Source: a virus (Duplodnaviria; Heunggongvirae; Uroviricota; Caudoviricetes). Taken from it: 9,305 nt of DNA. This document shows positions 5,181 to 5,491 of this stretch, piece by piece (position 1 is the stretch's first letter; the number at the start of each line of letters is the position of its first letter). A model generated the notes under the pieces. That model saw only the letters and a program-made list of their open reading frames with translations, made no database searches and was not told where the DNA came from. Location: the IMG/VR virus record IMGVR_UViG_2711768006_000002; one strand, 5' to 3'. The translations under genes were made by a program, and so were the position numbers.

Positions 5181-5255
5181 TGGAGCGGGCAGCGGGAATC
5201 GAACCCGCATCATCAGCTTGGAAGGCTGAGGTAATAGCCATTATACGATGCCCGC
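5181..5255 (-). tRNA. tRNA-Gly (anticodon UCC)
   Basis: Reverse complement reads GCGGGCATCGTATAATGGCTATTACCTCAGCCTTCCAAGCTGATGATGCGGGTTCGATTCCCGCTGCCCGCTCCA. It has a 7-bp acceptor stem, a T-arm GCGGG/TTCGATT/CCCGC, anticodon loop CUUCCAA and an encoded CCA. It resembles host glyT. Confidence 0.9.
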
Positions 5256-5258
5256 ATA

Positions 5259-5334
5259 TGGTGCCGACTACCGGAATCGAACTGGTGACCTACTGATTAC
5301 AAGTCAGTTGCTCTGCCTGCTGAGCTAAGTCGGC
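5259..5334 (-). tRNA. tRNA-Thr (anticodon UGU)
   Basis: Reverse complement reads GCCGACTTAGCTCAGCAGGCAGAGCAACTGACTTGTAATCAGTAGGTCACCAGTTCGATTCCGGTAGTCGGCACCA. Anticodon stem ACTGA/TCAGT, loop CUUGUAA, encoded CCA. Confidence 0.85.
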
Positions 5335-5336
5335 GC

Positions 5337-5413
5337 TGGCCCACCACCGAGGACTCGAACCTCGCACCGTCAACTTAGAAGGTTGATGCTCTATCCGGAT
5401 GAGCTAGTGGTGG
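5337..5413 (-). tRNA. tRNA-Arg (anticodon UCU, reads AGA/AGG)
   Basis: Reverse complement reads CCACCACTAGCTCATCCGGATAGAGCATCAACCTTCTAAGTTGACGGTGCGAGGTTCGAGTCCTCGGTGGTGGGCCA. Anticodon stem TCAAC/GTTGA, loop CUUCUAA, T-loop TTCGAGT, encoded CCA. Confidence 0.85.
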
Positions 5414-5414
5414 T

Positions 5415-5491
5415 TGGTGGCCCTTGCTGGACTTGAACCAGCGACCTGGCGATTATGAGTCGCTCGCTCTGACCAACTGAGCTAAAGGGCC
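5415..5491 (-). tRNA. tRNA-Ile2-like (anticodon CAU, ileX/ileZ type)
   Basis: Reverse complement reads GGCCCTTTAGCTCAGTTGGTCAGAGCGAGCGACTCATAATCGCCAGGTCGCTGGTTCAAGTCCAGCAAGGGCCACCA. Anticodon loop CUCAUAA. It closely resembles E. coli ileX (minor isoleucine tRNA) rather than tRNA-Met. Confidence 0.85.

Follow-up and report, generated by a model that had tools for sequence, protein, structure and literature searches.

The question raised by this locus is what four transfer RNA (tRNA) genes, packed almost end to end, do in the genome of a temperate phage. The whole stretch of DNA analyzed here, referred to as the window, comprises 9,305 bases of the IMG/VR virus record IMGVR_UViG_2711768006_000002 and is a piece of a lambdoid prophage of Escherichia or Shigella resembling phiP27 and the group of SfI, SfII and SfIV. 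ARAGORN found exactly four tRNA genes in it, all on the minus strand and together spanning positions 5181–5491 (Table 1). The best explanation, which is considered probable, is that they form a mobile four-gene tRNA operon at an accessory site between the gene for the late antiterminator Q and the lysis genes, and that this operon supplements tRNAs for rare codons. The four-tRNA array is already known, with annotations in numerous genomes of E. coli and Shigella; it is a routine prophage cassette. Annotation pipelines call such cassettes already, and the array itself matters little. Mildly new are only two points, namely the sharp conservation of the predicted promoter together with the terminators flanking it, and the switching of anticodons in sibling arrays.

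First, the composition of the array was established. In the direction of transcription, tRNA-Ile2 (CAU), tRNA-Arg (UCU), tRNA-Thr (UGU) and tRNA-Gly (UCC) follow each other with spacers of one, two and three nucleotides (nt), i.e., A (5414), GC (5336–5335) and TAT (5258–5256), and all four genes encode the CCA at their 3' end. With 56.4 to 70.5 bits, each gene scored above the gathering score of 29 bits of the Rfam covariance model RF00005. Thus, the coordinates, anticodons, spacer lengths and CCA ends given in an initial annotation, which did not state the strand, were all right. On neither strand is the array overlapped by an open reading frame (ORF) of at least 40 amino acids (aa). When the array, and the region between the tRNA-Gly gene and the holin gene in the unrelated prophage L012, were searched against Rfam by E-value, no further known RNA family was found apart from sub-threshold noise.

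The identity of the first gene decides whether AUA can be read by the array. Since ARAGORN cannot tell tRNA-Ile2 from tRNA-Met, it labeled the CAU gene 'Met', and the orthologue is called tRNA-Met in several GenBank phage records. That the gene encodes an elongator tRNA-Met, so that the array would not decode AUA, is nevertheless extremely improbable. It shares 74 of 77 nucleotides (96%) with ileZ of Stx2a_F349, 71 of 77 (92%) with ileY and 69 of 77 (90%) with ileX, but only 69% identity with the elongator genes metT and metU. Its acceptor stem (GGCCCTT/AAGGGCC) contains the pairs C4-G69 and C5-G68, whereas metT has U4 and A5. These pairs are positive determinants required by E. coli TilS (PMC1635315). 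In addition, PGAP, which relies on the isotype models of tRNAscan-SE, calls the identical sequence tRNA-Ile. By these features, the CAU gene encodes a tRNA-Ile2 of the lysidine-dependent kind, which would read AUA and is predicted to need lysidine at C34. This agrees with the Ile assignment of the initial annotation. The D-loop of the phage tRNA-Ile2 reads AGTTGGTCA.

The second gene combines host-like and phage-like features. The anticodon loop of the Arg(UCU) gene, CUUCUAA, as well as A20 and C35 are common to host argU, while its first pair is C1-G72 and its discriminator G73. It shares 84% identity with the PhiR47_1 Lys(UUU) variant, 83% with argN (UCG) of Shiga toxin (Stx) phages, 73% with host argU and 60% with argO. 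The marks of the argN scaffold, i.e., C1-G72, the D-loop ATCNGGA, the T-arm GCGAGGTTCGAGTCC and a position 1 nt after ileZ, are all present in the gene. Over 11 distinct variants of this scaffold, 97.8% of the cloverleaf cells were paired, with two compensatory pairs. A copy of host argU was ruled out, as the gene has only 73% identity to argU and carries the argN scaffold instead. Judged from its sequence, the gene is of the phage argN lineage and is predicted to work like argU. Ile-CAU and Arg-UCU had been described as the usual phage-borne tRNAs; both are typical of lambdoid phages, but an argU-like origin of the Arg gene did not hold.

The third and fourth genes derive from the host. The Gly gene is identical to glyT of E. 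coli K-12 (75 of 75 nucleotides), and the Thr gene matches thrU at 74 of 76 positions and thrT at 70%. The two differences from thrU, U16C and U20C, are both located in the D-loop, at positions normally occupied by dihydrouridine in E. coli tRNAs. This Thr allele goes with the arrays of the Arg(UCU) type, while arrays of the Lys type have Thr identical to thrU. The earlier proposal that Thr and Gly are copies of the tRNA genes of the host tufB operon was thus confirmed. A non-host order, as stated along with it, was ruled out: in K-12, thrU is followed by 8 nt, tyrU, 116 nt, glyT, 6 nt, thrT and then tufB, so that Thr followed by Gly is the host order from which tyrU and the spacers are gone. 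Of the capture and rearrangement suggested, the data support that thrU and glyT were captured from the host, but not a changed order. The spacer TAT corresponds to the host nucleotide that follows the thrU CCA (T), joined to the two that precede glyT (AT). This agrees with the operon having been captured and then having lost tyrU by a clean internal deletion, although a match of three nucleotides, expected by chance once in 64, is weak evidence. The array illustrates how tRNA operons may be assembled by temperate phages, as it joins a phage-lineage pair (ileZ and the argN scaffold) to two host genes copied in compacted form.

A consensus scan for sigma-70 promoters revealed a candidate upstream of the array (Table 1). 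Its −10 hexamer is separated from the first nucleotide of tRNA-Ile2 by 9 nt, within which lies the GC-rich CTGCCTCC. When the region was aligned with Stx2a_F349, phiP27, PhiR47_1 and three E. coli prophages, no variation was seen in TTGCA and TTATTAT, while the surrounding bases varied. The comparison of upstream regions comprised 43 unique sequences, which fall into 14 classes whose distal sequences are unrelated. In 40 of the 43 sequences and 11 of the 14 classes, a TANNNT ended exactly 9 nt before +1 and was preceded by TTG at a spacing of 16–18 nt; this joint TTG/TANNNT pattern occurred at most once at any of the other offsets between 4 and 39. There is, thus, good comparative evidence for a dedicated array promoter, with a predicted start 1–3 nt before the mature 5' end. 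An internal promoter candidate, TCGGCA-16-TATAAT at 5267–5240, was dismissed; its TATAAT is the D-arm of glyT and is identical in the host gene.

Terminator-like structures were found on both sides of the array. Upstream, a hairpin lies between the antirepressor gene and the promoter (Table 1), and the other arrays compared have a hairpin followed by a G-G-G-T-run at the position equivalent to 5584–5605. Downstream, the IMG/VR contig L077, which is 100% identical to all unmasked parts of the window, carries two terminator-like hairpins between the tRNA-Gly gene and the holin gene (L077 positions 4365–4384 and 4720–4746). The stronger one (4720–4746) has a stem of 10 base pairs (bp) and a T run and lies 40 nt before the holin ATG. 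Because a conserved promoter is present and terminators lie on both sides, the array is probably a self-contained transcription unit nested in the path of the Q-antiterminated late operon. The promoter suggests additional, Q-independent expression, and the position of the array would also permit read-through by Q-modified transcription. Placing the array inside the late operon, as had been done before, is right with respect to its position, since it lies between Q and the holin gene with all genes on the minus strand, i.e., the late-gene strand, but this description omits the conserved promoter predicted for the array itself and the terminators on both of its sides.

According to the preferred explanation, the array would be made as one short precursor, which is the only reasonable reading of spacers of 1–3 nt and in line with the initial annotation. 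One source of this precursor would be the sigma-70 promoter, which would permit expression in the lysogen, with the terminators before the holin gene insulating the lysis genes. After induction, Q-antiterminated late transcription reading through the array would be a second source. RNase P would then cut at each 5' end and thereby part the four tRNAs; this separation is proposed because spacers of 1–3 nt are too short for RNase E sites, those of the host tRNA operons examined being 6–116 nt long. Such a route through RNase P is described for closely spaced tRNA genes, e.g., E. coli valV-valW and the T4 cluster. The trailers of 1–3 nt after the CCA would be trimmed by the 3' exonucleases RNase T and RNase PH. 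Before IleRS charges the CAU tRNA, host TilS would have to convert its C34 to lysidine. The products would supplement four host tRNAs with one or two genes apiece (ileX/Y, argU, thrU and glyT), which read the A-ending codons AUA, AGA (and AGG), ACA and GGA, and the translation of phage genes, and of other genes acquired horizontally, would thereby be freed from a bottleneck.

In order to relate the array to codon demand, the eight genes of the window were compared with 40 annotated K-12 genes by Fisher's exact test. ATA occurred 6.9 times per 1000 codons in the window and 2.9 times in K-12 (p = 0.006), AGA 3.5 and 0.8 times (p = 0.003), and ACA 15.6 and 5.2 times (p = 4e-7). For GGA, the difference (10.9 as compared to 7.1 per 1000) was not significant (p = 0.07). 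A wider set consisted of 129 unique prophage ORFs (32,081 codons) flanking exact copies of the array. Here, AGG ranked first, AGA second, ATA third, ACA sixth and GGA tenth in enrichment among the 61 codons; the probability that the four cognate codons AGA, ATA, ACA and GGA all rank among the first ten by chance is C(10,4)/C(61,4) = 4e-4. Over-use of ACA was also recorded in SfI (PMC3636060). If the promoter makes these tRNAs in lysogens, prophage load could alter how the host reads AUA, AGA, ACA and GGA, codons that are common in horizontally acquired virulence genes.

Several points weigh against rare-codon supply as the role of the array. The excess of ATA and AGA in the window is located in early and regulatory genes, while its four packaging genes use each of the two codons only 1.6 times per 1000; therefore, any benefit is not specific to late structural proteins here. 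An enrichment of AUA and AGA in the late genes, to which the initial annotation had pointed as a check, was accordingly lacking in the packaging genes of the window, but all four cognate codons were enriched over the 129 neighboring ORFs. CGG and CGA are enriched as well and have no matching tRNA in the cassette, so that the signal partly reflects general foreign-DNA composition. As a host reference, no more than 40 K-12 genes were used, and the ORFs of the prophages came from a simple ORF finder. In sibling arrays, Arg(UCU) is swapped for Lys(UUU); AAA is not a rare codon, and codon supply cannot account for this swap. Finally, the explanation includes a promoter, a precursor and an RNase P route that are themselves predictions.

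The distribution of the array was analyzed next to its sequence context. The 326-base query 5175–5500 was matched over at least 80% of its length by 603 of 5,426 complete E. coli genomes; among the matches were several copies with 100% identity, annotated as tRNA-Ile, Arg, Thr and Gly. None of the complete E. coli genomes, in contrast, matched 80% or more of the window as a whole. A pattern for the scaffold of the second gene (slot 2) matched six sites in the GTDB species representatives of E. coli and S. flexneri and at least 120 IMG/VR contigs. No match was obtained in the other GTDB species representatives, hence there was no sign of a wider host range at that stringency. From the matches in the E. 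coli and S. flexneri representatives and the IMG/VR contigs, 126 loci were fetched. About 70 of them were of the type Ile-1-Lys(UUU)-2-Thr-3-Gly (numbers denote spacers in nt), about 37 of the type Ile-1-Arg(UCU)-2-Thr-3-Gly and six of the Stx type, Ile-1-Arg(UCG)-13-Arg(UCU); the rest were partial. The 1-nt spacer between Ile and slot 2 was kept in nearly all 126 loci.

The genomic surroundings of the array were found to vary. Annotated arrays always lie between a Q-type antiterminator and a holin, though the Q families and packaging modules differ; six other prophages show this layout. The stretch 5118–5591 of the window is 100% identical to a prophage of FDAARGOS_944 whose flanks are unrelated, and therefore the array behaves as a mobile cassette. 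In the unrelated prophage L012, 100% identity stops at 5591, within the 3' half of the upstream terminator hairpin, and the recombination junction of the cassette appears to lie inside the terminator. tRNA genes downstream of Q have been recorded in SfI, Sf6, ST64T, PS3 and phage 21 (PMC3636060), and tRNA genes around stx2a in an Stx2-converting phage (PMC7946995). The literature on ileZ, argN and argO and on tRNA expression in Stx phages offered nothing usable beyond general statements on Stx-phage tRNAs.

Movement among unrelated prophage backbones would also fit a neutral, hitch-hiking insert that is prone to recombination, or a set of RNase P sites that serves to cleave the long late transcript and to detach upstream regulatory RNAs from the lysis mRNA. 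Degraded copies, such as a Thr gene of 74 nt without part of the acceptor 3' strand (L017 and L019) and truncated arrays, point in the same direction. Such a neutral or purely processing role is, however, quite improbable: the exact array of 311 nt was kept in 32 of the 126 loci, in E. coli, Shigella and IMG/VR viral contigs, cloverleaf pairing and promoter are conserved, every identity element checked was intact, and a match to over-used codons is not expected of junk.

Among sibling arrays, the slot-2 scaffold was found with three anticodons, UCU (window), UCG (argN of Stx phages) and UUU, and its discriminator base is G, U or A. The UUU form, present in about 70 of the 126 loci (e.g., L015, L018 and L010, 4158–4234), has the loop CCUUUAA, in which C33 replaces the near-universal U33. 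Its 3' anticodon stem differs from that of host tRNA-Lys at positions 39–41, around the site that AriB cuts. It could be a nuclease-resistant Lys tRNA on an Arg scaffold. In L088 (241–316), the thrU-derived slot 3 carries UUU (G35U), resulting in the array Ile-Arg(UCU)-Lys(UUU)-Gly, and the RefSeq genome TW10690 is annotated in the same way. Since UUU is present on the slot-2 scaffold as well as in slot 3 of L088, this anticodon arose on two different scaffolds. In the RefSeq genome RMDEC332, a 'tRNA-Val' is annotated where Gly would be.

These variants bear on the possibility that the array is a counter-defence reservoir, replacing host tRNAs destroyed by tRNA-targeting systems of competing mobile elements. 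The nucleases in question are AriB of PARIS (tRNA-Lys(UUU), Thr(UGU) and Asn(GUU)), P2 Old, which is triggered by lambda Gam (tRNA-ThrU), PrrC (tRNA-Lys) and colicin D (tRNA-Arg). tRNA-Thr(UGU) is a main target of AriB (PMC12409363) and the main target of P2 Old in P2-lambda interference (PMC12445682), and is thus a prime target of both. Lambdoid arrays recurrently carry targeted species, i.e., Thr(UGU) in the window, Asn and Thr in SfI, and Lys(UUU) together with Thr in 66 of the 126 sibling loci. Moreover, the UUU anticodon has arisen on two scaffolds, and the slot-2 Lys variant has C33 and the 3' anticodon stem UAAGUU as compared to the host AriB site UAAUCA. The array of the window itself speaks against such a role: its Thr gene has the anticodon arm of host thrU, with UAAUC|A and with the two CNG motifs that Old uses, its Gly gene does not differ from glyT, and the anticodon loops of Arg and Ile2 are the same as the host loops. 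No substitution at nuclease sites of the T5 type (anti-PARIS or anti-Old) was found in the anticodon arms and loops of the array. Therefore, no resistance to cleavage is predicted, and only dosage could help. In addition, no nuclease acting on Ile2 or Gly(UCC) was reported in the literature found, and the literature found on phage anti-defence tRNAs, which treats virulent phages, makes no mention of lambdoid arrays. Counter-defence is, thus, an unlikely explanation of the array. Equally doubtful is the broader conjecture of a lysogen-expressed tRNA module whose slots would be re-targeted by anticodon mutation in an arms race with AriB, P2 Old and PrrC, and in which Thr(UGU) and a strong promoter would buffer the depletion of ThrU when Gam triggers Old. 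Still, anticodon switching among the siblings links lambdoid tRNA cassettes to recently discovered tRNA-cleaving defences.

Returning to the proposed rare-codon tRNA operon, its closest known relatives include the ileZ-argN-argO clusters of the Stx phages 933W, Stx2a_F349 and phiP27. As in the window, their tRNA genes are located downstream of Q and its terminator and upstream of the accessory and lysis genes. They share an ileZ orthologue as the first gene, the argN scaffold as the second (96% and 83% identity, respectively), the 1-nt spacer and a TTGCA...TATTAT promoter at equal distance. In contrast, slot 2 of the window has UCU instead of UCG, argO is replaced by the host-derived pair Thr(UGU)-Gly(UCC), stx genes are lacking, and Q is separated from the array by a c4/antirepressor module. 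The host cluster thrU-tyrU-glyT-thrT resembles the array in its Gly gene (100% to glyT), its Thr gene (97% to thrU), their relative order and the host flanking nucleotides retained in TAT; the array differs from it by the lack of tyrU, of 124 nt of spacers and of thrT, by the two D-loop substitutions of Thr, and by another promoter and context. The Ile-Lys(UUU)-Thr-Gly arrays of PhiR47_1, PPompW and many RefSeq genomes agree with the window in architecture, spacers of 1, 2 and 3 nt, position and promoter, with an identity of 93–94%. They differ in the slot-2 loop (CCUUUAA with C33 instead of CUUCUAA), in Thr, which equals thrU, and in an Ile gene of 76 nt instead of 77 nt. The compact tRNA clusters of T4 and T5 are likewise arranged head to tail with spacers of a few nucleotides, implying polycistronic precursors separated by RNase P. 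Their tRNAs have diverged from host genes, and several T4 genes do not encode CCA, whereas all four genes of the array encode CCA, two are near-identical host copies and the carrier is temperate.

The features of the window are summarized in Table 1. After the holin gene, the minus strand encodes Rz/Rz1, then an HNH endonuclease, followed by both terminase subunits (small and large) and the portal protein.

Table 1. Array genes, regulatory elements and neighboring features in the 9,305-base window.
Feature	Position	Strand	Evidence or remark
tRNA-Ile2, anticodon CAU, ileZ-type, array gene 1	5415..5491	−	ARAGORN; RF00005, 70.5 bits
tRNA-Arg, anticodon UCU, phage argN-type scaffold	5337..5413	−	ARAGORN; RF00005, 56.4 bits
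tRNA-Thr, anticodon UGU, host thrU copy	5259..5334	−	ARAGORN; RF00005, 69.8 bits
tRNA-Gly, anticodon UCC, identical to host glyT	5181..5255	−	ARAGORN; RF00005, 64.9 bits
Predicted sigma-70 promoter	5501..5529	−	TTGCAG (5529–5524), 17 nt, TATTAT (5506–5501); consensus scan
Intrinsic-terminator-like hairpin between antirepressor gene and tRNA promoter	5584..5605	−	AAACCCGCCGATGAGCGGGTTT, then T run
DnaB-type helicase	7726–9258	−	
RusA	7101–7472	−	
Late antiterminator Q	6725–7132	−	Pfam PF06530, E = 2.7e-52
Promoter-like site directly after Q stop codon	6720–6691	−	
c4-a1b1	6645–6697	−	Rfam match
isrK, 77-nt RNA, ends in terminator	6608–6684	−	Rfam match
C4 antisense RNA	6499–6582	−	Rfam match
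sRNA-Xcc1	6282–6365	−	Rfam match
ORF6N antirepressor	5681–6442	−	
Holin, phage 21 S type, N-terminus inside masked run	4700..4867 (or about 4700–4915)	−	Pfam PF04971, E = 2.6e-26

Two runs of N, 4412–4610 (199 bases) and 4868–5117 (250 bases), hide some of the lysis region as well as the DNA just downstream of tRNA-Gly. In L077, the first run corresponds to 626 nt (5092–5717) encoding the C-terminus of the endolysin and the N-terminus of Rz, and the second to 665 nt (4170–4834) comprising the non-coding spacer between tRNA-Gly and holin and the first holin codons. Because the N runs do not keep the true length, ORFs reading through them, e.g., 4231–4707 and 4700–5173, are artefacts. The lysis cassette of L077 is complete, with holin (71 aa, 4787–5002), endolysin, Rz and Rz1. 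In L012, the spacer between tRNA-Gly and holin contains a long hairpin (6803–6893, minus strand) with weak, sub-threshold matches to models of plant microRNA precursors; it is probably just a long inverted repeat, and its equivalent falls in the masked run 4868–5117 of the window.

The HNH endonuclease gene (3776–4126, minus strand) is located directly upstream of the genes for the small and large terminase subunits, a pairing that is usual in cos-type packaging modules of the HK97/phiP27 kind. Between Q and the tRNA array, the minus strand carries a module resembling P1 immI and Gifsy-1 isrK (5681–6720). The true start of its ORF6N antirepressor gene probably lies downstream of the sRNA-Xcc1 match, and the 77-nt isrK RNA takes the position of the short pR'-tR' transcript of lambda.

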